The notes under the pieces were generated by a model. That model ran no database searches. It was not told the origin of the DNA and saw only the letters and a program-made list of their open reading frames with translations. A DNA stretch of 47,960 bases from an uncultured Methanosarcinales archaeon (GTDB lineage: Archaea > Nanobdellota > Nanobdellia > Woesearchaeales > DATDXC01): positions 229,399 through 277,358 of the forward strand of contig CAZDZV010000001.1 in the NCBI GenBank assembly GCA_964510025.1, written 5' to 3'. The position numbers were made by a program, and so were the translations under genes. This document shows, in pieces, positions 3,329 to 16,934 of this stretch. How positions within the stretch are numbered: the stretch's first letter is position 1; every line of letters starts with the position of its first letter.

Positions 3329-4132
3329 ATGATTGTGAAGGACGAATTTTTAAGCAAGCTTAGGAGGTATTTCTCACTAAACTTGTATGAGGTCAAGATT
3401 TGGACTGCACTGTTGAGCAGGGGCGTTTCTACGGCAGGAGAGCTTTCTGATATTGCAAATGTGCCCAGGAGCAGAAGCTATGATGTTCTAGAGAGCCTGG
3501 AAAAAAAGGGATTTGTCATCATGAAGTTAGGAAAGCCTATCAAGTATGTGGCAGTAGCTCCTTCTGAGGTTTTAGAGAGAGTAAAGAAAAATGTGAGAGA
3601 AGAAGCAAAGGAACAGATAAAGAGGCTGGAAAGCCTAAAGGGAACAGAAGTCATAGGCGAACTGAATTCTCTGCATACTCAGGGAATAGAGCTTGTTGAA
3701 CCTGCTGATCTATCGGGATCTTTGAAGGGAAGACACAACCTATATAACCATCTTGAGCTTATGATAAAAAATGCAGAAGAATCTGTCTCGATAATGACTA
3801 CAAGCCAGGGCTTCATGAGAAAGGTAGAGGGACTGAAGCCGGTTCTTGAGAAAATAAAGAAAAGAGGAGTAAAGATAAAAATTGCAGCGCCTCTAACAAA
3901 GGAGACTATGCCTTCTGTGAACGATATCAAGGGAGTTGCCGAGATAAGACATACAGATTCTAAATCAAGGTTTTGCATTGTTGATGGAAAGGAACTTGTC
4001 TTTATGGTCTTGGATGATAAAGACGTCCATCCGACCTATGACCTGGGTATTTGGGTAAACACTCCTTTTTTTGCATCAGCTCTGCAGGATTTGTTTGAGC
4101 AATCCTGGAAGAACATGAAAGCAGTCAAATAA
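3329..4132 (+). CDS. TrmB-family transcriptional regulator / chromatin protein (TrmBL2-like)
   Basis: N-terminal wHTH LNLYEVKIWTALL...VPRSRSYDVLESLEKKG, C-terminal PLD-like domain (SRFCIVDGKE). SD GGGGGTG. Confidence 0.88.
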   Translation: MIVKDEFLSKLRRYFSLNLYEVKIWTALLSRGVSTAGELSDIANVPRSRSYDVLESLEKKGFVIMKLGKPIKYVAVAPSEVLERVKKNVREEAKEQIKRLESLKGTEVIGELNSLHTQGIELVEPADLSGSLKGRHNLYNHLELMIKNAEESVSIMTTSQGFMRKVEGLKPVLEKIKKRGVKIKIAAPLTKETMPSVNDIKGVAEIRHTDSKSRFCIVDGKELVFMVLDDKDVHPTYDLGIWVNTPFFASALQDLFEQSWKNMKAVK

Positions 4133-4148
4133 ATTTTTTTCTTTTTTT
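4133..4148 (+). terminator. T-rich archaeal terminator after the TrmB-family gene
   Basis: TTTTTTTCTTTTTTT directly after the stop codon. Confidence 0.55.
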
Positions 4149-4150
4149 GA

Positions 4151-4168
4151 AATAATAAAATTTAAAAG
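4151..4168 (+). promoter_or_regulatory. BRE/TATA promoter of the leader transcript
   Basis: AATAATAAAA-TTTAAAAG. The first T of the TATA box is 31 nt upstream of ATG 4192, similar to the spacing at other leaderless genes in the window. Confidence 0.6.
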
Positions 4169-4191
4169 TATGCTTTGATTCCCATACCAAA

Positions 4192-4251
4192 ATGGCACAT
4201 GAAAAGGCCCTCAATAAGGATTTTTTTCTAGTTCCATATTTCTATTTTTGA
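4192..4251 (+). CDS. Putative Phe/Tyr-rich leader peptide MAHEKALNKDFFLVPYFYF (19 aa)
   Basis: ATG 4192 to TGA 4251. Four Phe and two Tyr among the last 9 codons. Lies directly upstream of the Phe/Tyr biosynthesis-pheST operon. Confidence 0.6.
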   Translation: MAHEKALNKDFFLVPYFYF

Positions 4252-4253
4252 TT

Positions 4254-4302
4254 GTCCCGCGGTTTAGCTACTGCAGGGACCAGTGATTTTGCAGTTGTTT
4301 TT
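4254..4302 (+). promoter_or_regulatory. Putative attenuator: alternative hairpins plus U-tract
   Basis: GTCCCGCGGT(4254-63) pairs with ACTGCAGGGAC(4270-80). Alternatively ACTGCA(4270-75) pairs with TGCAGT(4290-95), extendable by G-U pairs and followed by TTTTT(4298-4302). Confidence 0.5.
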
Positions 4303-4370
4303 CAGCTATTAATAAAAAAATTTAAAAACACCTGTGCAAAATTAGCCAGTGGGGGTGTAAATGCTGTAAA

Positions 4371-5183
4371 ATGTCAAAATTAAATGACCTTAGAAAGATT
4401 GCCTTAGAAGTCAGGAAGGATATACTTAGAGATACCTGTGAAGCCAGTTCAGGCCACCCAGGGGGAAGCCTATCAGCTACCGATATTTTAGTTTACCTAT
4501 ATTTCAGAAGACTACGGCATAATCCAAAGAATCCTCAATGGGCAGATAGGGACAGATTCATACTCAGCAAGGGTCATGCTGCACCTGCTTTGTACGCATG
4601 CCTCGCGCACTCAGGCTATTTTCCTGTCAGCGAGCTAAAGACATTGAGGTGTTTAGGCTCAAGGCTGCAGGGGCATCCTGAAAGGACAAGACTGCCTGGG
4701 GTAGAGGCTTCAACAGGCCCGCTTGGCCAAGGATTGAGCTTTGCCAACGGGGTAGCTCTGGCAGCCAGGATAGATAAAAAAAGCTACAAGGTCTACTGCT
4801 TGATTGGCGATGGGGAAAGCCAGGAAGGCATGATATGGGAGGCAGCGATGACAGCAGGCCATTATAAGCTGGATAATCTTTGCGTAATACTAGATCATAA
4901 CCGGCTACAGATAGATGGTAAGGTGGCTGATGTTAAGAATATAGAGCCAATTAAAGATAAGTTTAGCGCCTTTAATTTTTATGTCATTGAAATTGACGGC
5001 CACAATTATCAAGAGATCGGTGAGGCGCTAGAAAAAGCTGACAAGCAAAAAGGGAGACCAACTGTAATAATCGCGAATACGGTAAAAGGGAAAGGAGTAG
5101 AGTGTATGGAAAACAAAGCTGAGTGGCACGGGAAAGCCTGTAAGCCCGAAGAATTAGAAAGCATATGCCGGAGCGTAAAGTAA
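4371..5183 (+). CDS. tkt: Transketolase, N-terminal (TPP-binding) subunit
   Basis: SGHPGGSLS, DRFILSKGH, LQGHP, GDGESQEG...N TPP motif. Confidence 0.95.
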   Translation: MSKLNDLRKIALEVRKDILRDTCEASSGHPGGSLSATDILVYLYFRRLRHNPKNPQWADRDRFILSKGHAAPALYACLAHSGYFPVSELKTLRCLGSRLQGHPERTRLPGVEASTGPLGQGLSFANGVALAARIDKKSYKVYCLIGDGESQEGMIWEAAMTAGHYKLDNLCVILDHNRLQIDGKVADVKNIEPIKDKFSAFNFYVIEIDGHNYQEIGEALEKADKQKGRPTVIIANTVKGKGVECMENKAEWHGKACKPEELESICRSVK

Positions 5184-5184
5184 A

Positions 5185-6108
5185 ATGGAAGCAACCAGGG
5201 ACGGATTCGGAAGAGGAATTGTAGAAGCAGGCAGAAACAGGAATGTCGTAGTCTTAGATGCAGATTTGGCAGAGTCTACAAGAAGCATCAGATTTAAGGA
5301 GAAATACCCAGAAAGATTTTTTGATATGGGGATTGCAGAGATGGATATGGTCGGGACAGCTGCAGGCCTGGCAGCCTCAGGAAAGATACCTTTTGCATGC
5401 AGTTTTGCAGTATTTTCGACAGGCAGGGCATATGGGGCCATGAGGCTGGCTGCGATATCTCAGTTGAATGTAAAAATTGTGGGCAGCCACGCTGGAATAG
5501 GCACTGGAGAAGATGGGGCAACACATCAGTCCATTGATGATATTGCGCTAACGAGGGTATTGCCTGGCATGACCGTTGTGCAGCCGTGCGATTCGATAGA
5601 GGCTGAGAAAGCTACCTTGGCCCTAGCAAACGACACAGGAACTGCTTATCTAAGACTAACAAGATCAAAATTGCCAATATTGACCAGCAAGGAGGAGGAC
5701 TTCATAATAGGCAAAGGAGAAATAATCCAGGAGGGAAAGGATGCAACTATAATAGCGACAGGCAGCATGGTAAGCATAGCTTTGGAAGCTGCATCTGCTT
5801 TAAAAAAAGATAAGATAAGTGCAGCAGTTGCTAATTTTCACACGATCAAGCCAATAGACAAAAGAATGATAATAAAAATGGCCAAACAGACAGGATCCAT
5901 AGTAACCGCCGAGGACCATAGCATAATAGGCGGATTAGGAAGTGCTGTAGCAGAGACTCTAGTTGAGAAATATCCGATCAACATGGCTAGGATAGGAATT
6001 AATGATTTATTCGGCCAGTCTGGAAAGCCAGAAGAGCTTTACAGAGAATACGGTTTAACAAAAGATAATATAACAAAGACAGTTAAGTCTTTGAGGAGGT
6101 CAAAATGA
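5185..6108 (+). CDS. tkt: Transketolase, C-terminal subunit
   Basis: [38 protein letters not shown]. Confidence 0.95.
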
Positions 6109-6893
6109 TTGGAAAAGAAATAAGGATGCAAAGAATAATAGACAGAAACACAGGAAATACCGTTATTATCCCGATGGATCATGGGGTGACTGTCGGCCCG
6201 ATAAAAGGGCTAGAGAATATGAAGAACACAATAGACAAGGTTGCTGAAGGCGGTACCAACGCTATTTTACTGCATAAGGGAATCGTCTCAGTTGGCCATA
6301 GGACAAGCGGAAGAGATGTCGGGTTGGTTATTCACCTATCAGCATCGACGTGCCTAGGACCTGATCCCAACCATAAGGTGATTGCATGTTCTGTAGAGGA
6401 AGCGCTTAAGCTGGGCGCAGATGCCGTGTCTATACATGTGAATATCGGAGCTGATGATGAAGCATACATGCTTAAGGATATGGGTAAAATCTCCAGAAAA
6501 TGCGATGAGTGGGGAGTTCCTCTGCTTGCTATGATGTACCCAAGAGGCAAGAAAATAAAGGACGAAAAGGATGTGGATGTTGTAAAGCTAGCTGCCCGGG
6601 TAGGTGCTGAACTGGGAGCAGATATAGTGAAGACAAATTATACAGGCAGTGTAAAAACCTTCAAGCAAGTGGTTGAAGGCTGCCCAGTGCCTGTAATAAT
6701 AGCCGGCGGTTCCAAAGGCAACGAACTAAGCACACTTAAAATGATAGAGGATGCTATGCAAGCCGGAGCTAAAGGCGTAGCCATGGGAAGAAATTCATTT
6801 CAACATCCAAATCCTGTCAAATTTGTAAAGGCTGTATGCGAGGTTGTACATAAGGGCAAAAAAGCAAAAGATGCAGCTAAGATCCTTAGGTGA
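6105..6893 (+). CDS. aroA': 2-amino-3,7-dideoxy-D-threo-hept-6-ulosonate (ADH) synthase, DhnA-type class I aldolase
   Basis: [21 protein letters not shown] Schiff-base Lys, AGG. Adjacent to DHQ synthase II. Confidence 0.88.
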
Positions 6894-6895
6894 AT

Positions 6896-7891
6896 ATGAT
6901 GAAAAAATTTTGGGTAAATGTACCAAAGTGGGATAAGAAGATAGTGACAACTGCACTGGAAAGCAATGCCGATGCTATTGTCATACCTGAAGGACACTCT
7001 GACAAAGTAAAGGAGTTAGGATTAATCACTACAGTAAGCAAGGATGGGGACATGAAAATTGGAAGGGATGTCGTAATGGTGACAATAAACAGCAAAGAGG
7101 ATGAGAGGCAGGCCCTACATGAGTCCAAATCAAAGACAGTAGTCATAAAAACCAAAGACTGGAGGATAATACCTTTAGAAAATCTTATATCACAAACTAA
7201 GGGACTTATAGCAGAAGTGAAGAATGCTTCTGATGCAAAGACCGCCCTGGAGATACTGGAGAAAGGTGTTGACGGAGTATTGTTGACAACATCCAACCTT
7301 AACGAGATAAAGAAAACAGCAGCACTGATAAAGAGATCCACAGAGAAACTAGAGCTTGTCAAGGCGAAAATACTGAGTATCCGGCCAGTGGGAACAGGAG
7401 ACAGAGTCTGCATAGATACCTGCACAAACATGAAGATAGGACAAGGGATGCTAGTGGGAGATTCAAGCTCTGGTATGTTTTTAGTCCATTCAGAGTCTGT
7501 AAAGAATCCCTATGTGGCCCAGAGGCCGTTTAGGGTAAATGCGTCTGCTGTTCATGCCTATATAAAAGTACCTGAAGGAAAAACTAAGTATCTCTCAGAG
7601 CTTTCCACAGGAACAGAAGTACTTGTGGTCGACCATAAAGGAAATACTGAGTTGGCGATAGTAGGAAGGACAAAGGTGGAGAAAAGGCCGCTTATGCTGC
7701 TTGAAGCTGAGGCCAAAGGGAAAAAGATATCCCTGATCCTGCAGAATGCGGAAACTATCCGACTTGTCAAGCCAAGCGGAAAGCCCATATCGATCATAAA
7801 ATTAGGAAAAGGGGATTATGTTTTAGCCTACACCGAAGCTGCAGGAAGGCATTTTGGAGTAAAAATAAAGGAGACCATAACCGAGAAATGA
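6896..7891 (+). CDS. aroB': 3-dehydroquinate synthase II
   Basis: WRIIPLENLI, GDRVCIDTC, RPFRVNA, LQNAETIRL, GRHFG. Start at ATG 6896 or 6899 (GTG 6890 possible). Confidence 0.95.
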   Translation: MMKKFWVNVPKWDKKIVTTALESNADAIVIPEGHSDKVKELGLITTVSKDGDMKIGRDVVMVTINSKEDERQALHESKSKTVVIKTKDWRIIPLENLISQTKGLIAEVKNASDAKTALEILEKGVDGVLLTTSNLNEIKKTAALIKRSTEKLELVKAKILSIRPVGTGDRVCIDTCTNMKIGQGMLVGDSSSGMFLVHSESVKNPYVAQRPFRVNASAVHAYIKVPEGKTKYLSELSTGTEVLVVDHKGNTELAIVGRTKVEKRPLMLLEAEAKGKKISLILQNAETIRLVKPSGKPISIIKLGKGDYVLAYTEAAGRHFGVKIKETITEK

Positions 7892-9300
7892 TATGTGTAC
7901 CGATAACTGCTTCAAAGACAGAAGCGGCCTTAAAAGAAATTAGGGAATCAAAAGCAGGCCTGATAGAGCTTAGGCTAGATTTTATCAAGGACATAAATGA
8001 AGAAAACCTGGTTAGGTTGATGAAAAGAACAAGGAAGAAGACTATAGTAACAGACAGAAAAATGAGATTGTCTCTCCTGAAGAAAGCTATCGAGATGAAA
8101 GCGGATTATATTGATATTGACTATAAGGAGCACCACAGACTTGCTGGTAGGTTTGACACGGGCAAGACAAAGCTGATAATATCATTTCACGATTTTAGGA
8201 AGACAGACATGAGAAGAATAAGCTCTGTCTTGGCAAAAATCAAAAAACTGAATCCGGATATCATAAAGCTTGTAAGCCGGGCAAACAGCATAAACGATAA
8301 TTTTGCAATCTTTGATATACTCAAAAAAAACAAGAAGACGGTGGCCTTCTGCATGGGTGAAAAGGGAAAGATATCAAGAATTTTGTGTATTTTTTTCGGA
8401 TCTGCATGGACCTATGGCAGCCTGTCAGAAGGAAGGGAATCTGCGCCCGGCCAAATACCGGCAGACGAACTTCGCAGTATTTACAGAATCCATAAATTAC
8501 AGAACCCCAAAATATACGGGCTAGTAGGAAACCCTGTCGAGCACAGTATAGGGATTTTTGTCCATAACCGCGCATTTGAGAAAACAAACATAAATGCAGT
8601 ATATGTAAATTTTTTAGTGGAAGAACTGCTAGGTTTTGTAAGGAAGGCCAGGGGTTTATTTTCAGGCTTCAGTGTCACCATTCCATTTAAAAAGAGTATC
8701 ATACCAATACTAGACAAACTGGATCCTATAGCTGCAAAGATCGGTGCTGTAAATACAATTATCAAGAGAAATGACGGATTAATAGGATATAATACAGATA
8801 TAGCCGCCTTAGAAAGCCTAGGAGGAGTTAGAAACAAAAAAGTCATTTTGATTGGGGCCGGGGGAGGTGCCAGGGCGATTGCTTTTGGGATAAAGAAAAA
8901 AAAAGGAAAGCTAACAATTATAAACAGAACTGTAAGCAAAGCCAGGAAATTAGCCGCAGAATTAAACTGCGAGTACATGGGCCTGAAAAAAGTCCAAGAA
9001 ATCAGACGGGGGGATATACTCATTAATTGCACGCCTATCGGAATGCACCCCTATACAAACAGAAGTCCAGTAGGAAAAAATACGTTAAAAAAAATATTAA
9101 AGAAAAAAGCCACTGTTTTTGATATTATATACAATCCAATCAAAACAAAGCTGCTAAAGGAAGCCGATGCGTTGGGTTTCAGGACCATAAGTGGCGTTGA
9201 TATGTTTGTCGATCAGGCAGCAGAACAATATCGGCTTTGGACAAATAGGAAAGCTCCCAGGGAACTGATGAAAAAAATTCTCCTGAAGCATCTAAAATGA
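7888..9300 (+). CDS. aroDE: Bifunctional type I 3-dehydroquinate dehydratase / shikimate dehydrogenase
   Basis: N-terminal IELRLD, ISFHDF, IIKLV, SAPGQ (AroD). C-terminal GNPVEHS, SVTIPFK, GAVNT, NTD, GAGGGARA (AroE). Confidence 0.92.
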   Translation: MICVPITASKTEAALKEIRESKAGLIELRLDFIKDINEENLVRLMKRTRKKTIVTDRKMRLSLLKKAIEMKADYIDIDYKEHHRLAGRFDTGKTKLIISFHDFRKTDMRRISSVLAKIKKLNPDIIKLVSRANSINDNFAIFDILKKNKKTVAFCMGEKGKISRILCIFFGSAWTYGSLSEGRESAPGQIPADELRSIYRIHKLQNPKIYGLVGNPVEHSIGIFVHNRAFEKTNINAVYVNFLVEELLGFVRKARGLFSGFSVTIPFKKSIIPILDKLDPIAAKIGAVNTIIKRNDGLIGYNTDIAALESLGGVRNKKVILIGAGGGARAIAFGIKKKKGKLTIINRTVSKARKLAAELNCEYMGLKKVQEIRRGDILINCTPIGMHPYTNRSPVGKNTLKKILKKKATVFDIIYNPIKTKLLKEADALGFRTISGVDMFVDQAAEQYRLWTNRKAPRELMKKILLKHLK

Positions 9301-10571
9301 AGATAATAGCAAAAAAAACAGAGAAACTACAAGGTGCAGTAACCATACCTAGCTCAAAGTCGCATACCATCAGAGCTGTAATCTTCGCCTCTTTGGCAAA
9401 AGGCATCTCAAGGATAATAAATCCGCTACAATCAGGGGATACCATATCTGCTGTAGAAGCATGCAGGTCTTTTGGCGCAAAAATTGATACAAGTAAAGAT
9501 ACTGAATGGACAGTTGAAGGATTTGATGGGCAACCAAAAAAACCTGATAATGTAGTGGATTTAGGAAATTCTGGCACCTCACTAAGGATACTAACCGGGG
9601 TAGCTTCATTAGGCGACTTTAAGGTAGAACTCGACGGAGATGATTCCCTGAGGAAAAGGAATATGCAGCCTTTGCTATCAGCATTAAACAGATTAGGATC
9701 TGAGGCTTTATCGGTAAATAATGATGGGTGCCCGCCAGTAGAGATAAAAGGGAGGATTACCGGAGGAAGTGCTGTGCTGGATTGCAAAAGTTCACAATAT
9801 ATCTCAAGTTTACTGATAAGCTGCCCGCTAGCTGAGAAAGACTCCGAGATCGAGCTAGTAAATGTTTGTGAGAAGCCTTATATCGAGATGACCATGAGGT
9901 GGCTTGACGAACTAGGTATTAGATATGAAAACCATAATTTCGAGAGGATGAGGATTTTCGGAAATCAAAGGTATAAGGCATTTGATAAGACTATCCCAAA
10001 TGACTGGAGCTCTGCCACATTTTTGCTTGCAGCCGGAGCTATGCTTGGAGAAGAGCTGCTTATCAAAGGGCTAGATACAGAAGATTCACAAGCCGACAAG
10101 GAAGTCTTGGACTATCTTAGGAAAATGGGGGCGAATATAAAAACTGAAAAAGATGGGATAAGAATAACCAAGTCAGATCTAAAAGGCTGTGAACTGGATT
10201 TGAACAATACTCCGGATGCCTTACCTGCAATGGCTGTACTGGGATGCTATGCAGCGGGAGAGACCATAATAAAAAACGTGGGGCATGCCAGAATAAAGGA
10301 GACCGATAGAATCAAGATTATGGCTGAACAGCTAGGCAATATGGGGGCAGATATAAGAGAGCTGGAGGAAGGACTTATAATCAGAAAGAGCAGACTGAAG
10401 GCAGCAAGACTAAAAGGATACAGCGATCACAGGATTGTAATGGCCCTGAGTCTAGCAGGCCTAATAGCCGACGGCATCACAGAAATAGACAGTGCCGAAG
10501 CTATTAACGTGACCTTCCCTGGCTATACACATTTAATGAAGAGTCTAGGCGCCTTATTAGAAGAAAAATGA
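9297..10571 (+). CDS. aroA: EPSP synthase
   Basis: PSSKSHTIRA, GNSGTSLR, SSQYISSLL, RIKETDRI, DHRIVMA. Confidence 0.96.
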   Translation: MKIIAKKTEKLQGAVTIPSSKSHTIRAVIFASLAKGISRIINPLQSGDTISAVEACRSFGAKIDTSKDTEWTVEGFDGQPKKPDNVVDLGNSGTSLRILTGVASLGDFKVELDGDDSLRKRNMQPLLSALNRLGSEALSVNNDGCPPVEIKGRITGGSAVLDCKSSQYISSLLISCPLAEKDSEIELVNVCEKPYIEMTMRWLDELGIRYENHNFERMRIFGNQRYKAFDKTIPNDWSSATFLLAAGAMLGEELLIKGLDTEDSQADKEVLDYLRKMGANIKTEKDGIRITKSDLKGCELDLNNTPDALPAMAVLGCYAAGETIIKNVGHARIKETDRIKIMAEQLGNMGADIRELEEGLIIRKSRLKAARLKGYSDHRIVMALSLAGLIADGITEIDSAEAINVTFPGYTHLMKSLGALLEEK

Positions 10572-11074
10572 ACATAGTACTAATAGGTTTCAAAGCAGTG
10601 GGGAAAACAACTTATGGGAAGCTACTGGCTGAAAAGCTGGGCAAGGATTTTGTTGACCTTGATGATCTATTAGTTGAGACAAGCGGAGAAAACACCAGCT
10701 GCAGAGAGATTTTTCAAAAAAGAGGAGCAGAATTTTTCAGAAAACTGGAGACAAATGCATTAAAAAAAATAAAATCTGCTGAAGATAAAATAATTGCTGT
10801 AGGAGGGGGCACAATATCAAGCAAAGAGAATGTCCAAATGCTTAAGGCTATAGGAAAGATTGTATATTTGGACGACGACAAAGATAGCATATTTAAGAGA
10901 ATGATGAAACAGGGATTGCCTGCTTTCATTAATGAATCTGCCCCACGGGAATCATTTGAAAAAATTTTTTCGGAAAGAAGGGAAGAATATAAAAAGGCAG
11001 CAGATATTATAATAGACTGCAAGAAAAAAACAAGTGCAGAGATAGTAGATGAGATTGTTGAGAGGTTAGCATGA
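10568..11074 (+). CDS. aroK: Shikimate kinase, bacterial (NMP-kinase fold) type
   Basis: P-loop GFKAVGKTT, DLD, FRKLE, GGG; 168 aa. Confidence 0.92.
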   Translation: MNIVLIGFKAVGKTTYGKLLAEKLGKDFVDLDDLLVETSGENTSCREIFQKRGAEFFRKLETNALKKIKSAEDKIIAVGGGTISSKENVQMLKAIGKIVYLDDDKDSIFKRMMKQGLPAFINESAPRESFEKIFSERREEYKKAADIIIDCKKKTSAEIVDEIVERLA

Positions 11075-12132
11075 GCAGCACAATGGGAAAGCAAATGAAA
11101 ATCATGACTTTTGGAGAGTCTCATGGAGAGGCAGTCGGTGTCGTTATAGATGGCATAAAGCCCGGCCTAAAAATAGACAAGAAAGATATACAGAAAGAGC
11201 TAGACAAGAGAAAGCCCGGCAAAAACATACTTGAATCTCAGCGTAAGGAAAAGGATGAGGTCCATATACTATCGGGTATATTCAACGGAAAGACCACGGG
11301 GCATCCTATCTGCATGGTTGTTTATAACAAAGCCCAGAATCCAAAGGATTATGCGAGGATAAAAGACATTTTTAGGCCAGGTCATGCTGATTATACCTAT
11401 TTCCGAAAGTATGGGATCAGGGATTACAGGGGCGGAGGAAGAGCTTCAGGCAGGGAAACAATAGGCCGGGTTGCAGCGGGAGCTGTTGCGAAAAAGATTC
11501 TAGCAAAAAAGAACATAAAGATAGTAGCCTATACAGTCCAGATAGCAGATATCAAGGCAAAGAATTTTGAGCTGAAGCAGATCAGCAGGAACAAAGTAGG
11601 ATGTCCTGATAAGATGGCAGCACATCTTATGGAAAAGAGGATTTTGGAAGCAAAGAAGGAAGGAGACTCTGTCGGGGGGATAATCGAGGTATACATAAAG
11701 AACTGCCCCATTGGTCTTGGGGATCCGGTTTTTGATAGGCTGGATGCAAATATCGCAAAAGCTGTCATGTCAATAGGCGCAGTCAAAGGAATCGAATTTG
11801 GAGCAGGATTTAAGGCAGCTATGCTTAAGGGATCTGAGAATAATGATGAGTTTTTTCTTAAAGCAGGAAAAATAAAGACCAAGACAAATAATGCTGGGGG
11901 GATTTTAGGGGGAATCTCGAACGGAGAGGATATTGTCTTTAGGATAGCTGTGAAGCCGACTGCGTCTATCTCCAAAGAACAGGAAACAGTGGATGTTAAT
12001 AAAAAGATGAAAAAAATAAGGATAAAAGGCAGGCATGATCCATGCATCTGTCAGAGAGTTATCCCGGTAGTTGAATCCATGACCAGCATTGTAATTGCTG
12101 ATGCTATATTGGAGCAGGAAACGATAAGATGA
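11071..12132 (+). CDS. aroC: Chorismate synthase
   Basis: GESHG, RPGHAD, GGGRASGRET, KPTASI, GRHDPC. Confidence 0.97.
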   Translation: MSSTMGKQMKIMTFGESHGEAVGVVIDGIKPGLKIDKKDIQKELDKRKPGKNILESQRKEKDEVHILSGIFNGKTTGHPICMVVYNKAQNPKDYARIKDIFRPGHADYTYFRKYGIRDYRGGGRASGRETIGRVAAGAVAKKILAKKNIKIVAYTVQIADIKAKNFELKQISRNKVGCPDKMAAHLMEKRILEAKKEGDSVGGIIEVYIKNCPIGLGDPVFDRLDANIAKAVMSIGAVKGIEFGAGFKAAMLKGSENNDEFFLKAGKIKTKTNNAGGILGGISNGEDIVFRIAVKPTASISKEQETVDVNKKMKKIRIKGRHDPCICQRVIPVVESMTSIVIADAILEQETIR

Positions 12133-12971
12133 AAAAGAACCTGATAGGGATTATTGGGGGAACCGGTCAGATGGGCCAGTGGTTCAAGAATTTTTTTGAG
12201 AAAGAAGGATATGAAGTTATGGTCGCAGGCAGACAAACCAGTTTGAGTCATGAGGAATGCGCCTCCAGGGCAGATGTGGTCATCATATCGGTGCCCATTA
12301 ATGCAACCCAAGATGTTATCAAAAAGGTGGGGCCCTATGTAAAAAAAGGAGGTCTTTTGATGGATATCACCTCAATTAAAGAAGAACCTGTCAAGGCAAT
12401 GAAGAAATATTCCAAGTCAGAAGTAATCGGCACACATCCTGTGTTCGGGCCGAATATAGCTTCGATTGAGGACCAGACTGTGGTTCTTTGTCCGGCAAGA
12501 GGCAAGAAATGGCTTGAATGGCTGAAAAAAATCCTGGAGAAACACGGCGCAAAAATCAAGGTCACCTCGCCCAAACATCATGATGAGATGATGGGGGTCA
12601 TACAAGGGGTGATCCACTTCAGCTCCATAACAATAAGCCATACACTTAAGGAACTTGGCATAGGGGTAAAAGAAAGCCAGGAATTCAGCAGCCCGATCTA
12701 TAAGCTAAGGCTGGATATGGTGGGAAGAATACTAAATCAGAATCCGGACCTTTACGCCGATATAGAGATACTGAATAAAAACTCAAAAAAAGCTATCAAA
12801 ACCTACCTGAAGACCCAAAAGAAACTTCTAAAAATTATCCAGCAAAAAGATACAGAAGGCTTTATAAATTATTTTAATGAAGCCGCAGAGTATTTGGGGG
12901 ACTTTAGAAAAGAAGCTGAGGAGTACAGCAATTACGTCATAGAAAAAATTATCGAGAGGAGTAGCTCATGA
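12129..12971 (+). CDS. tyrA: Prephenate dehydrogenase
   Basis: GGTGQMG Rossmann motif, DITSIK, HPVFGP, HDEMMGVIQG. Confidence 0.92.
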   Translation: MKKNLIGIIGGTGQMGQWFKNFFEKEGYEVMVAGRQTSLSHEECASRADVVIISVPINATQDVIKKVGPYVKKGGLLMDITSIKEEPVKAMKKYSKSEVIGTHPVFGPNIASIEDQTVVLCPARGKKWLEWLKKILEKHGAKIKVTSPKHHDEMMGVIQGVIHFSSITISHTLKELGIGVKESQEFSSPIYKLRLDMVGRILNQNPDLYADIEILNKNSKKAIKTYLKTQKKLLKIIQQKDTEGFINYFNEAAEYLGDFRKEAEEYSNYVIEKIIERSSS

Positions 12972-13771
12972 AGACCGCAACCCTTGGTCCAGAAGGTACC
13001 TTCAGCCATGAGGCTGCCCTTCAGAGATCTAAAAATATCGAGTTCAAAAACACCATATGGGATGTTTTTGAAGCTGTAGATAAGGATGAAGTAGAAGAAG
13101 GGATCGTACCTGTTGAGAATTCTGTTTCTGGAAGCCTTGGCCTGACTTTGGATGCCCTGATGGAATTTGATCTGAAAATAACAGGGGAGATAATACTGCC
13201 CGTAAGACACTTTCTCGTCGGGCATGATGGTATGAAAGATATCAAGACTTTATATGTGCATCCTGCAACATATGAGCAGTGCGAGAAATTCATCCGGAAA
13301 AACCTGCCCCAGGTTGATATAATAAGAACCAACTCAAATGCTGCTTCGGCCAAGATAATTATGGAAAAAAACGATAAAGCAGCTGCCGCCATAGTGCCAA
13401 ACAAGTCGATAGGGCTTTACAAACTGAAAGTAATAAGAAAACAGATCCAGGATAATAAGTTTAATGTAACCAGATTCTTCGCAATCGGCAAGCAAATCCC
13501 CAAGGCAACCGGAAGGGACAGAACCTCAATCGCAATTTATCCCCAAACCGATAAACCTGGATTGTTGTATTCTTTACTGGGGGAATTTGCATCAAGAAAT
13601 ATCAATCTTACCAAAATAGAATCAAGGCCTTCCAAGGGCAAATTAGGGGACTATATTTTTTACATAGACCTTCAAGGCCATAAAGAGCAAAAGAGCATAA
13701 AGGATGCTTTCAAGGAAATCGAAAAGAATTTTTTCCTCAAGATATTAGGAAGCTATCCTAAAGAGTACTAA
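12968..13771 (+). CDS. pheA: Prephenate dehydratase with ACT domain (no chorismate mutase domain)
   Basis: LGPEGTFSH, PVENS, NVTRF, NLTKIESRP, LGSYP. Confidence 0.95.
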   Translation: MKTATLGPEGTFSHEAALQRSKNIEFKNTIWDVFEAVDKDEVEEGIVPVENSVSGSLGLTLDALMEFDLKITGEIILPVRHFLVGHDGMKDIKTLYVHPATYEQCEKFIRKNLPQVDIIRTNSNAASAKIIMEKNDKAAAAIVPNKSIGLYKLKVIRKQIQDNKFNVTRFFAIGKQIPKATGRDRTSIAIYPQTDKPGLLYSLLGEFASRNINLTKIESRPSKGKLGDYIFYIDLQGHKEQKSIKDAFKEIEKNFFLKILGSYPKEY

Positions 13772-13772
13772 A

Positions 13773-15281
13773 ATGAATATCGTGGAAAAGCTACATCCTC
13801 TGGAAAGAAAAATACTTCCTTTGGTAGATAGCAATAATTTTCTTGATCTTGTTAAGCAATCTAACCTAAAAGATGTTGAGGTAATGAGGGCAGTTCAGTG
13901 GCTGGAAAATAAGAACCTGATTAAAATAGATAAGAAAATCTCAAAAGTGATTGACTTGGCACCAAACGGCAAGAATTATGCTCGTTCAGGACTTCCAGAA
14001 AGAAGGTTCCTGGAAGCCTTAAAAGGAAAGATGCCTGTAGCAGAAGTCGCCCAGAAGGCTAAACTAAGCAAAGATGAGATAAATGTATGCCTGGGTGTCC
14101 TGCGAAAAAAGGCAGCGATAGCCATAGGCAGGGACAAGCATTTGATTGTCAAGGCGCTTCCAAATGCTGAAAATCTGTTGACAAGCGGATTTTTGGAAGA
14201 AAAACTGCTAAAGAAGAATTTTCCTTTACGTATTGACGAGCTTAAGGATGAAGAGAAATTCGCATTGGAGAATTTGAAAAAGAGAAAGGATATAATAAGA
14301 ATCGAAGAAAAGACAACAATAGAAACAGAACTTACAGAACTAGGAAAACAAGCACTAAGGACAGGCCTGGAGCAAGATGATATTATAGACCGGGTGACCA
14401 AGAAAATTCTTGAAGAGTCGTCTTGGAAGAAAAAAAAATTCAGAGGCTATGACATAAAGATAAATGTTCCTGAGATTTTTGGAGCCAAGAAACAGCACTA
14501 CAGAAGATTTCTAGATGAGGTCAGAGCTAAATTCATGTCGCTGGGATTTAAGGAGATGTTTGGCCCTATTGTCGAAACCGACTTTTGGGATATGGATGCG
14601 CTTTTTATGCCACAATTTCATTCTGCTAGAGATATTCATTCAGCATATTATGTGAAGGAACCTAGGTACGGAGATATAGATAAGGATCTTATTAGTAAAG
14701 TAAAGAAATCACACGAAAAAGGCTATAATACTGGGAGCCGAGGCTGGAACTATGCCTTCGATACAAAAAAGACAAAAAGGCACCTATTAAGGACACAGGG
14801 AACAGCTCTTTCTGCAAGGATGCTTGCTTCCAAAAACCTCAGGATACCGGGGAAATATTTTGCTATAGCCAGATGTTTTCGACCAGATGTAGTGGATGCC
14901 ACCCACTCTGTAGATTTCAATCAGGTAGAGGGGATTGTAATCGAAGAAGGACTTGATTTCAGGCACCTTAAGGGCCTGCTGAGGCTTTTTGCTAGAGAGT
15001 TTGCTGAAACTGAGAAAATAAAAATAACTCCTGCTTATTTTCCTTTTACCGAGCCGTCTGCTGAACTTCATGCAAAGCATCCTGACCTGGGATGGGTGGA
15101 ACTAGGAGGATCAGGGATATTTAGGCCGGAAGTGGTGAAACCTTTGCTTGGAAAGGAAATTCCAGTACTGGCATGGGGCATCGGTATAGACAGAATTGCA
15201 ATGTTCAAGCTAGGTATTGGTGATATCAGGCAGCTGTTCAGCCATGATCTAAAAATGTTAAGGCAGACAAGGGTAATATAG
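13773..15281 (+). CDS. pheS: Phenylalanyl-tRNA synthetase alpha subunit (archaeal long form)
   Basis: FWDMDALFMPQFHSARD, DATHSVDFNQVEG, YFPFTEPS, AWGIGIDR. Confidence 0.96.
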   Translation: MNIVEKLHPLERKILPLVDSNNFLDLVKQSNLKDVEVMRAVQWLENKNLIKIDKKISKVIDLAPNGKNYARSGLPERRFLEALKGKMPVAEVAQKAKLSKDEINVCLGVLRKKAAIAIGRDKHLIVKALPNAENLLTSGFLEEKLLKKNFPLRIDELKDEEKFALENLKKRKDIIRIEEKTTIETELTELGKQALRTGLEQDDIIDRVTKKILEESSWKKKKFRGYDIKINVPEIFGAKKQHYRRFLDEVRAKFMSLGFKEMFGPIVETDFWDMDALFMPQFHSARDIHSAYYVKEPRYGDIDKDLISKVKKSHEKGYNTGSRGWNYAFDTKKTKRHLLRTQGTALSARMLASKNLRIPGKYFAIARCFRPDVVDATHSVDFNQVEGIVIEEGLDFRHLKGLLRLFAREFAETEKIKITPAYFPFTEPSAELHAKHPDLGWVELGGSGIFRPEVVKPLLGKEIPVLAWGIGIDRIAMFKLGIGDIRQLFSHDLKMLRQTRVI

Positions 15282-16934
15282 ATGCCAACTGTTACTTTTT
15301 CAGTTAAGGACCTGGAGTCATTAGTAGGAATGAAACTGGCGATAGAAGATATTCAGAAGTATGCTCATCTGGGAAAAGGAGATGTAGATGCATATGATAA
15401 GGATACAGATGAAGTAAAGATTGATTTTGGAGATACGAACCTGCCTTATCTTTGGTCTGCAGAGGGCTTTGCTAGGCTTATCAAGCTCAGTGCAGGAATA
15501 AACAAAGGCATCCCCAAGTTATTGGTAAAGAAAGGAAGTTACAGGGTAAATGTGGACAAATCGGTTGGAAATATCAGGCCATATATAGCTGCTTTTGTGG
15601 CAAAAGGCCATAAGATAGATGATAATCTGATTAAACAAATAATACAACTTCAGGAAAAACTCTGCGAGAATTATGGGATGAAAAGGCAGAAGGTTGCAAT
15701 AGGGATATACCGACATGACAAGATTAGCTTCCCTATACATTACAAAGCCACTGATCCCGAATCTGTTGAGTTTATTCCACTAGACTACCGGAAACCGATG
15801 ACGCAACAGGAAATCTTGGAAGACCATCCCAAAGGAAGGGAATACGCCTGGATCCTAAAGGGCAACAAGAAGTATCCCCTATTAGTGGATGACAAAGACC
15901 AGGTTTTAAGTTTCCCCCCTATAATAAATTCAGAGGCTACCGGAAAGATTGAAGAAGGCGATGAAAACCTATTCTTTGAAGCAACCGGAACAGACCTTAA
16001 TTCTGTATTGTTAGCAACAAATATATTCGCACAGGCGCTTTACGAGCGGGGATTTAAGATATATTCTGCAGAGATTAGATACAATAAGAACAAAATAACA
16101 ACACCCAAGCTTTTTTATGATAAGATTCAACTAAGTACAGATTTAGCAAAGAAGCTAACTGGATTAGACCTAAAAAGAAGCGAACTAAAAAGCCTGATAC
16201 TTAAAGCAGGGTACGATATATCTGGAGACAAGATTATGGTAGCCCCGTACAGAGCAGATATCCTGCATCCGGCTGATCTTATCGAGGATATTGCAATTGC
16301 ATATGGCTACGATAATATCGATGAGCAGCCACTGCAAAGCCACACTATAGGTTCAACTTCAGAGCTTATCAGCTTCATTGATAAAATCAGGGAAATTGCC
16401 ATAGGATTAGGATATCAGGAGATATTCAGTCCGATACTCAGCAACAAGCCCACCCTTTATGACAGAATGAACATAAAAGACTTTGGCACCATAGAGATTG
16501 ATAATTTCATGTCAGAAAAATACTCGGCAGTAAGGTCCTGGTTAGTCCCCATCTTGCTGGAATTCCTCTCAGTGAACAAACATGCGGAATATCCGCAGAA
16601 TATCTTTGAAGAAGGGCTTGTCTGCAGCAGAAAGGCTGACGACATAATGGAGCACCACAGGATTGCCCTGATCAGATGCAGTGAGAAAGCTGATTTTACA
16701 GAAATAAAGCAAGCTCTGGATTACCTATTCAGGATGCTAAATGTTGAATATAAGATAGAAGAGACTATACATGGGTCATTTATCCAGGGCAGAACGGGAA
16801 GGGTCGTTGTCGATGGCAAGAAAGTTGCATACATAGGGGAGATTCACCCAAAGGTTCTAGAGAGGTTTGGCATAAATATGCCTACTGCTGCATTCGAACT
16901 GAACATTTCAGAACTATATGAGGCTATTTCTTAG
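15282..16934 (+). CDS. pheT: Phenylalanyl-tRNA synthetase beta subunit (archaeal type)
   Basis: MPTVT N-terminus, LSFPPIINS, YRADILHPADLIEDIAIAYGY, GEIHPKVL. Confidence 0.96.
   Translation: MPTVTFSVKDLESLVGMKLAIEDIQKYAHLGKGDVDAYDKDTDEVKIDFGDTNLPYLWSAEGFARLIKLSAGINKGIPKLLVKKGSYRVNVDKSVGNIRPYIAAFVAKGHKIDDNLIKQIIQLQEKLCENYGMKRQKVAIGIYRHDKISFPIHYKATDPESVEFIPLDYRKPMTQQEILEDHPKGREYAWILKGNKKYPLLVDDKDQVLSFPPIINSEATGKIEEGDENLFFEATGTDLNSVLLATNIFAQALYERGFKIYSAEIRYNKNKITTPKLFYDKIQLSTDLAKKLTGLDLKRSELKSLILKAGYDISGDKIMVAPYRADILHPADLIEDIAIAYGYDNIDEQPLQSHTIGSTSELISFIDKIREIAIGLGYQEIFSPILSNKPTLYDRMNIKDFGTIEIDNFMSEKYSAVRSWLVPILLEFLSVNKHAEYPQNIFEEGLVCSRKADDIMEHHRIALIRCSEKADFTEIKQALDYLFRMLNVEYKIEETIHGSFIQGRTGRVVVDGKKVAYIGEIHPKVLERFGINMPTAAFELNISELYEAIS

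Follow-up and report, generated by a model that had tools for sequence, protein, structure and literature searches.

A putative ribosome-read Phe/Tyr leader of an archaeal aromatic operon and its cognate counterparts at other amino-acid operons of Woesearchaeales

Attenuation of amino-acid operons by a ribosome that translates a short leader is a textbook bacterial mechanism. In Escherichia coli, pheM-pheST and pheL-pheA, and also trpL, leuL, ilvL and hisL, are leader-peptide transcription attenuators, and tnaC is a Rho-dependent, stall-protected leader. Here we analyse a window of 47,960 nucleotides (the whole stretch of DNA under study, from contig CAZDZV010000001.1) of a woesearchaeal genome of 1.70 Mb and 97.7% completeness, in which a 19-codon open reading frame (ORF) rich in Phe and Tyr codons precedes an operon for aromatic amino-acid biosynthesis (aro operon). 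Sequence comparison indicates that this element is real, conserved and regulatory, that it is very probably a cis-acting, ribosome-read sensor of Phe and Tyr for the aromatic operon, and that it is one of a set of cognate leaders (Phe/Tyr, Leu/Val, Ile, Cys and Trp) in those Woesearchaeales that make amino acids.

A related arrangement is described in mycobacteria where, as far as the accessible part of the report goes, ribosomes stalled on the leaderless poly-Cys short ORF Ms5788A turn expression on, several such loci form a 'ribulon', and the output is the release of a duplex that sequesters the Shine-Dalgarno (SD) sequence (Canestrari et al., 10.1101/834739). Rho-gated leaders are reviewed in PMC13675443, of which a part was available. 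For Archaea, the first-pass annotation of the window had stated that amino-acid leader attenuation is not an established mechanism, and we likewise found no archaeal amino-acid leader attenuator in the literature, most subscription papers and supplements aside. [quoted passage not shown] Of the archaeal termination nuclease aCPSF1/FttA, the accessible parts of the respective papers report that the Pyrococcus enzyme prefers single-stranded CA (PMC3553952), that FttA cuts the RNA 22 nt from its 3' end and favours U-rich RNA 9-14 nt upstream of the cut (PMC11616081), and that archaeal terminators do not require a hairpin (PMC8716108); mutual exclusion of FttA and the ribosome is put forward as a hypothesis in the FttA structure paper (PMC11616081).

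The Phe/Tyr leader and its conservation

The features around the leader, in window coordinates and all on the forward strand, are:

4155..4168, +: predicted promoter P1, purine-rich bases resembling a B recognition element and the TATA box TTTAAAAG (4161-4168), 31 nt upstream of the leader ATG
4192..4251, +: leader ORF MAHEKALNKDFFLVPYFYF, 19 codons, predicted to be leaderless, conserved in 48 loci
4254-4263/4270-4280, +: hairpin A, 10 bp with one bulge, beginning 2 nt past the stop, about -15 kcal/mol
4281..4285, +: CA-N-Y-G motif at the 3' base of hairpin A, here the degenerate copy CAGTG (mostly CATYGT in relatives)
4371..16934, +: operon under the presumed control of the leader, with tktN, tktC, ADH synthase, DHQ synthase II, aroD-aroE, aroA, aroK, aroC, tyrA, pheA, pheS and pheT, whose genes overlap or abut

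All features that the first-pass annotation had placed here were recovered where it put them. The TATA box, which scores 7.6 bits with a matrix built from leaders other than those of aro operons, has the spacing proposed for a leaderless transcript, and a TATA-like box 29-34 nt before the ATG is present in 38 of 48 leaders, the ATG nearest to 30 nt being taken where several are in frame. The last nine codons hold four Phe and two Tyr and no Trp, the candidate sensing codons being Phe11, Phe12, Tyr16, Phe17, Tyr18 and Phe19, and the 3' half of the ORF forms a U-rich run. The lack of Trp had been linked to the lack of trp genes downstream, which is true of this locus (the genes listed behind the leader include pheA, tyrA, pheS and pheT and no trp gene) but is not general among relatives; the last eight codons of the 48 aro leaders contain 11 TGG in all, several of them ahead of operons without a trp gene in view. 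As to the caution that T-rich DNA yields Phe and Tyr codons by chance, at least five Phe or Tyr in the last nine codons occur in only 4 of the 1126 small ORFs with an ATG that lie between genes in the focal genome, and the leader has the top Phe/Tyr/Trp tail among the 85 TATA-spaced small ORFs found when 403 gene heads were scanned. Self-BLAST of the region within its own genome returned AT-rich chance matches only.

Among the 401 genomes of the order, aroC was found in 66, and 58 of those loci together with earlier ones were gene-mapped. A conserved Phe/Tyr-rich small ORF upstream of orthologous operons had been named beforehand as a check, and was found: a blind rule (a gap ORF 8-50 codons long that starts with ATG and has five or more Phe, Tyr or Trp among its last ten codons), applied to all transcription-unit heads in 69 loci, picked an ORF at 34 of the 46 aro heads, 28 of these with a TATA box, against 8 of 159 other heads, and at 5 of 31 internal aro gaps. 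Three of the eight other heads have a TATA box, and one of these three precedes a pheST unit. The 12 misses at aro heads include two that score four, heads called at the upstream gene and loci without a leader in view; two heads of DAHP synthase genes (L131, L165), likewise counted as misses, have aromatic-rich ORFs in which Phe, Tyr and Trp lie in the middle and not at the end. An independent control comprised 80 trmB loci, four of them too short: 67 of the 70 without an aro gene in view lack a Phe/Tyr/Trp leader, and of the six with aro genes three carry one right behind trmB and two more just before DAHP synthase. Among 80 metagenome tkt loci the two closest (L047, L048) were inspected, and both have the leader.

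Further properties were taken from a curated set of 48 leaders, 43 of them from 42 genomes in 27 families (hand-counted), two from metagenome contigs and three from named records. This set was chosen for its Phe/Tyr content, the blind head scan being the unbiased test, and kin within it are not independent, so that leader counts overstate significance; the near-identical leaders L145 and L155 were removed before structure counts (48 to 46). The unpublished genomes G135, G210 and G212 supply 3 of the 48 aro leaders and, in the survey described below, 3 of 30 leuA, 3 of 30 trpE, 3 of 30 cysK, 3 of 20 cimA and 3 of 30 his loci; the main conclusions are independent of them, but two of the four strict motif matches at cimA leaders come from these genomes. 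The curated leaders are 15-34 codons long and end in TAA (21), TAG (14) or TGA (13). In their last eight codons Phe and Tyr account for 255 of 384 codons in frame and for 103 and 79 in the other frames, as compared with 127 ± 6.5 when the same bases are shuffled; for Tyr the figures are 105 observed and 32 after shuffling. The synonymous variation looked for is present, synonymous codons being used. The last sensing codon is 0-1 codons away from the stop in 45 of 46 aro leaders, in 25 of 25 leu and in 18 of 19 Cys leaders of the other operons, and sensing codons abut the stop also where this is not enforced by their density. Conservation does not extend to the N-terminal halves; one sub-clade keeps an FFLD-like motif, whose underlying CTAG occurs in different frames. 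The leader is retained though the first gene varies (tkt, DAHP synthase, chorismate mutase or ADH synthase), and at five loci its ATG lies within a few bases of the trmB stop, with no TATA box. A search of 301 genomes of the class with a DNA pattern matched no more often than the reversed control pattern.

Several loci have unusual arrangements. L043 (G039) carries two complete Phe/Tyr leaders in tandem, at 8194-8271 and 8586-8666 (+), each with its own TATA box and hairpin, with ADH synthase downstream. At L236:4887, L242:4955 and L245:4895 (+) there are Phe-only leaders without Tyr, resembling pheM, followed by an unidentified gene and then pheS-pheT, with no aro gene within 4 kb, and at L166 a Phe/Tyr leader precedes a similar pheST unit without an aro gene. 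The trmB-tkt-aro-pheST loci L038, L039 and L041, compared with window positions 6105-7891, have the same leader, behind which stand ADH synthase with DHQ synthase II, DAHP synthase with AroB, or both.

Cognate leaders at other amino-acid operons

A scan of the focal genome for TATA-spaced small ORFs found three further cognate leaders, and with that of a separate trp operon the genome carries all four others (leuA, cimA, cysK and trpE):

G000:C1:195209-195256, + (L265): Ile-run leader MNQSRNIDIISIIIA before citramalate synthase
G000:C10:57301-57239, - (L266): Leu/Val-run leader MKSTGKADNGFLLVSLLLVL with a hairpin, before leuA-ilvB
G000:C3:134155-136569, + (L267): Cys leader MMVNCICC, then tRNA-Cys, then a cysK-cysS fusion, the gene identities being confirmed
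G000:C10:31123, -: Trp leader MKMSGYRWL before the trpE-like gene of the separate trp operon

The leuA operon continues as leuA-ilvB-ilvH, then leuC, leuD, leuB and ilvC-like genes, and the product of the fusion gene has 760 aa comprising cysteine synthase and cysteinyl-tRNA synthetase, both over cut-off.

A cross-pathway survey of 66 aroC-positive or aro genomes, using the best 30 loci per gene, found that 25 of 30 leuA loci have a Leu/Val/Ile-run leader, 19 of 30 cysK loci a Cys-run leader and 15 of 30 trpE loci a Trp leader; among the 90 loci there were two cross-class matches and no Phe/Tyr leader. Ile-run leaders precede 19 of 20 cimA-like loci drawn from the weaker matches. At his loci, viewed over 1.35 kb so that the operon head may fall outside, His-run small ORFs were seen in 3-4 of 29; upstream of hisG regions these read MNRVGYLHHH, MISNNGFVLASHHHH and MTKVGHHHQ (L392, L397, L407), and a further one (L390) has two His. 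No His or Arg leader was seen at the his and arg heads of the focal genome, and Thr, Lys and Met operons were surveyed at lysC and hom only.

Cys leaders end on Cys in 16 of 19 cases, and in several loci a tRNA-like sequence, called as tRNA-Cys in the focal genome, stands between leader and cysK. Of the 15 Trp leaders, 11 have Trp exactly one codon before the stop, a position to be read with the fact that the leaders were selected for Trp close to their end. Very short Trp leaders upstream of trpE share an S-D-C-x-W motif in nine relatives (L305, L307, L309, L310, L315, L317, L323, L324, L327); they have no hairpin A and mostly no CA motif, and the conservation of their peptide exceeds what sensing of one Trp requires.

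Three further features of the focal locus lie next to or within the leader:

3329..4132, +: TrmBL2-like gene upstream of the leader (NF041141, E 6.5e-24, below cut-off)
4133..4148, +: oligo-T tract, by analogy with archaeal U-tract terminators (PMC8716108) the likely terminator of the trmB-like gene
4192..4237, +: weak predicted 5' hairpin within the ORF, closing near CTAG, a sub-clade feature

The TrmBL2-like gene is, as far as locus comparison tells, not needed for the leader element, since many leaders sit behind other genes and trmB loci without aro genes mostly have no leader; on the same grounds a TrmB-operator reading of the element was rejected. TrmB-like proteins 74-82% identical, in a Woesearchaeota-like gene order, occur in many records titled 'uncultured Methanosarcinales archaeon', titles that are probably wrong. 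The 5' hairpin does not overlap hairpin A; CTAG is present in 22 of 46 aro leaders, and the fold of the ORF is better than that of codon shuffles in only 10 of 46 (median z -0.52). Within the operon, matches of the tyrA (280 aa) and pheA (267 aa) products are confined to the dehydrogenase and the dehydratase part; chorismate mutase, which many relatives carry, was called neither as a gene nor as a domain between 4371 and 16934, the part of the genome searched for it.

RNA behind the leader and its possible action

Hairpin A is conserved in relatives and its arms covary. Counted when a single-stem caller gave a stem-loop of at most -6 kcal/mol starting -3 to +4 nt from the end of the stop, it is present in 41 of 46 aro, 23 of 25 leuA and 17 of 19 cimA leaders, and the focal fold of 4250-4310 beats shuffled sequences (z -2.45, 4 of 200 as good). 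In an arm-swap test the own-arm duplex had a median of -11.7 kcal/mol as compared with -6.7 for cross-locus duplexes, a gap that disappears in slid windows and in Cys leaders, in which no arm pairing follows the stop. The outer pairs vary (G-C/U-A/C-G, then C-G, A-U or U-A) and G-U pairs occur; the latter, together with variable loops, argue for an RNA element and against an operator. RNAalifold, run on a MAFFT alignment of 23 leaders, returned no consensus structure, which we ascribe to stems offset by one column between loci and to the variable loops. Rfam gave nothing at gathering score (best E 0.21, unrelated families), and NCBIfam, in which there is no leader-peptide family, matched none of six leader peptides. 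A second, independent hairpin downstream of A, in which a U-tract pairs with an A-run ending in G(G/A)A(C/G)TA, occurs by motif in 7 of 48 leaders (L004, L044, L047, L127, L132, L169, L174) and is absent from the focal locus.

The CA-N-Y-G motif may be a candidate cleavage signal of aCPSF1/FttA or a pause signal of RNA polymerase. The focal genome encodes both aCPSF1 (TIGR03675, 906 bits) and Spt5 (TIGR00405, 151 bits), each over cut-off. Seventeen of 41 aro leaders and 12 of 23 leuA leaders carry the motif at the base of A; a caller that over-extends stems, and that missed the focal copy, placed it at the hairpin base in 18 of 46 aro leaders against 2.1 expected. In 11 of 19 Cys leaders, which have no hairpin, it lies 6-11 nt past the stop, and in 11 of 19 cimA leaders within 45 nt of it. 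The stricter CATYGT falls within 45 nt of the stop in 14 of 46 aro, 4 of 25 leu, 10 of 19 Cys and 1 of 15 Trp leaders; in this the leaders differ from the ordinary gene ends of the focal genome, where CATYGT is rare (5 of 252; the looser CANYG, 37 of 252). Judged by eye, Cys leaders roughly fit the predicted arrangement of U-rich RNA 9-14 nt upstream of a single-stranded site; aro leaders fit the FttA geometry, with a putative cut site, only if hairpin A is looped out. The motif was also considered as an anti-AUG element, and inspection by eye revealed no consistent partner.

Overlapping hairpin A or downstream of it, the focal locus further contains:

4266..4302, +: alternative hairpin B (4270-4278/4287-4295) with T5 (4298-4302), -9 to -10 kcal/mol, locally present and not conserved
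4313..4329, +: predicted promoter P2, an A-run and a TATA box (4322-4329), 12.6 bits
4329..4358, +: SD-like GGGGGTG (4351-4357), predicted to pair with 4329-4334, -8.1 kcal/mol, independent of the A/B state

A two-codon ORF, ATG CTG TAA, lies at 4361-4369 between GGGGGTG and the tkt start; its stop is one base before the tkt start codon, and it could take part in initiation.

The reading that we prefer, to which in its full form we assign a probability of about 0.5, is that a stalled ribosome protects the transcript and that aCPSF1/FttA is the off-switch. P1 would make a leaderless transcript, the sensed codons standing at the end of its first ORF. When neither Phe nor Tyr is scarce, the ribosome would complete the ORF and depart, exposing the U-rich run, hairpin A and the single-stranded CA; aCPSF1/FttA would then cut the nascent RNA, and transcription would end before tkt. 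With charged tRNA-Phe or tRNA-Tyr in short supply, the ribosome would dwell at the last codons and shield the U-rich run, which would allow read-through. Hairpin A would be either a component of the OFF state, free of ribosomes, or a pause by which the decision is timed, and hairpin B a local extra. The tRNA-like sequence between leader and cysK favours an output at the level of RNA over one at the level of the SD, and in the focal genome the hairpin of the cimA leader would mean OFF, since it holds SD-like bases. The extension of this scheme to a multi-pathway regulon of leaderless cognate ORFs (Phe/Tyr, Leu/Val, Ile, Cys, Trp and occasionally His), in which the ribosome gates the access of aCPSF1/FttA to a shared hairpin-plus-CAUYGU module, is tentative, with odds that we place somewhat short of even.

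A number of observations weigh against this scheme. A pyrimidine followed by G at the RNA 3' end is the bacterial pause consensus, and by analogy the CA motif could equally be a polymerase pause. The motif is absent from more than half of aro leaders and rare in Trp leaders (2 of 15), and only 4 of 17 cimA leaders have it at the hairpin base as called (0.9 expected); moreover, it was chosen after the aro, leu, Cys and Trp data had been seen, the cimA set having come later. The FttA structure, in the accessible text, favours U and not C just 5' of the cut (PMC11616081), and on this geometry a folded hairpin A would need to loop out between the U-run and CA. Stalls at four of the six sensing codons leave hairpin A intact, and the A/B switch does fold as proposed at the focal locus. 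Leu and Cys tails are only 47% U, and together with the His-run ORFs at 3-4 of 29 his loci they imply that U-rich codons are not strictly required; the His-run ORFs likewise weaken the idea that U-rich codons alone are used. A stalled ribosome uncouples from the polymerase and might itself invite FttA, P2 may bypass the leader, and capture of the SD by a hairpin is not general, the SD lying outside the hairpin in most cimA leaders.

Among the alternatives, the classical two-hairpin attenuation put forward in the first-pass annotation, in which a stall frees A as antiterminator and a ribosome that has reached the stop covers A and lets B and the U-tract terminate at about 4300, is unlikely to be the general mechanism. 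At the focal locus it works in silico: folding with a masked leader, on the assumption of the ribosome reach of 15-16 nt measured in Haloferax (PMC7261190, in its accessible part), gives A for a ribosome positioned at Phe17 and B for one at Phe19 or the stop (A, -15.2, when masked to 4252; B, -9.7, when masked to 4258 or 4261), and T5 follows B. Of the two stems expected to covary in relatives, A does so and B shows no enrichment: 15 of 41 aro leaders have a competing B stem (shuffling gives 16.9), B with a U-rich octamer is found in 6 of 41, the focal locus among them (4.2 expected), and B with a U-tract in 1 of 23 leuA leaders (2.4 expected). A conserved terminator hairpin with U-tract sharing an arm with A was not found across orthologues, and even the focal B, as had been cautioned, is weak, being no better than shuffles (z -0.69, 41 of 200). 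Though possible at the focal locus, the A/B switch cannot be what selection keeps across the order. Besides, a stall at Phe19 would yield the terminator, an untranslated leader would read through as A has no upstream competitor, Cys leaders have no A, and archaeal terminators are generally without hairpins.

Translational attenuation, in which the position of the leader ribosome would set the sequestration of the SD or start codon of the first gene, seems to us quite improbable. It would share its leaderless architecture with the mycobacterial poly-Cys ORFs, as these appear in the accessible text of 10.1101/834739, and 24 of 38 aro leaders have an SD-like motif ahead of the first gene, and some folds extend to the start codon; in the focal genome, the hairpin right behind the stop of the cimA leader (L265) contains the SD-like bases of the gene, and the aro SD is predicted to be paired. 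This pairing, however, is local, involving neither the leader nor A and independent of A or B, so that leader RNA hiding the downstream SD was not found at the focal locus. Also against it speak the variable spacing between the stop and the first gene, which in most loci ranges from about 60 to 230 nt, the tRNA gene before the focal cysK and, in most cimA leaders, an SD outside the hairpin.

Promoter interference has a small chance of being correct; in this reading the operon mRNA starts from P2, and transcription from P1 through the leader, which the ribosome either sustains or cuts short, turns P2 off or on. The second TATA box that the first-pass annotation listed as a caveat was confirmed and scores above P1. 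Among 41 aro leaders, 12 have a site reaching 7 bits in the stretch from A to the first gene, where 3.3 are expected, and among 23 leuA leaders 7 do, with 2.0 expected; 29 of the 41 aro leaders, however, lack a strong P2, and such sites as are present stand at varying distances, 37 to 91 nt, from the start codon. That no codons are sensed at all, a U-rich RNA signal or a trans-acting small hydrophobic peptide being what is conserved and the Phe/Tyr codons incidental, is very improbable in spite of the 65% U of the Phe/Tyr run and of the FFLD-like motif, given the in-frame excess of Phe and above all Tyr over shuffled bases, the variable lengths and N-terminal halves, and the fact that the leader amino acid tracks the pathway, so that neither U-richness nor a trans-acting peptide explains the set.

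Significance and comparison with described systems

If the stall-protection scheme is true, amino-acid attenuation would here be built from the archaeal/eukaryotic cleavage-termination machinery, with a nuclease of the CPSF73 family, and not from a terminator hairpin, and the leaders would be genomic evidence that coupling in DPANN archaea is tight enough to serve regulation. Some supposedly dependent DPANN archaea keep biosynthetic pathways and appear to regulate them by end product. Both attenuation and coupling become testable in a tractable archaeon by means of a 170-nt cassette, which has a TATA promoter and codons that can be swapped and of which dozens of natural variants exist.

The element falls outside both the pheL/pheM and the mycobacterial types, having neither a conserved terminator hairpin nor general SD capture. 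As in E. coli pheL and pheM, a short ORF at the transcript start ends in codons for the operon's own amino acid and structured RNA comes next, and the targets include pheA and pheST (L166 being a pheST unit without an aro gene). Unlike these, the woesearchaeal leaders are TATA-driven, predicted to be leaderless and transcribed by an archaeal polymerase, they have no conserved terminator hairpin with U-tract and apparently no conserved upstream protector, and one leader would sense Phe and Tyr for the whole shikimate route. The Cys leaders are similar to the mycobacterial poly-Cys ORFs, as described in the accessible part of that report, in that a leaderless (here predicted) short ORF heads the operon; unlike there, SD capture is confined to single loci, a tRNA gene can intervene, the set spans at least five amino-acid classes, and the host is an archaeon. 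With tnaC and other Rho-gated leaders, to the extent covered by the available text, the proposed logic has in common that a ribosome at the end of the leader ORF conceals the site at which a termination factor loads, a factor that binds via NusG/Spt5. Unlike in tnaC, the factor would be the nuclease aCPSF1/FttA, the stall would result from uncharged tRNA and not from nascent-peptide arrest, and the operons are biosynthetic, not catabolic. Finally, the leaders would resemble aCPSF1/FttA terminators (PMC11616081, PMC8716108, PMC3553952) in their U-rich nascent RNA, single-stranded CA and independence of a hairpin; those terminators, however, are described in the accessible parts of these papers at the ends of transcription units and inside operons, and not as ribosome-gated switches in 5' leaders.

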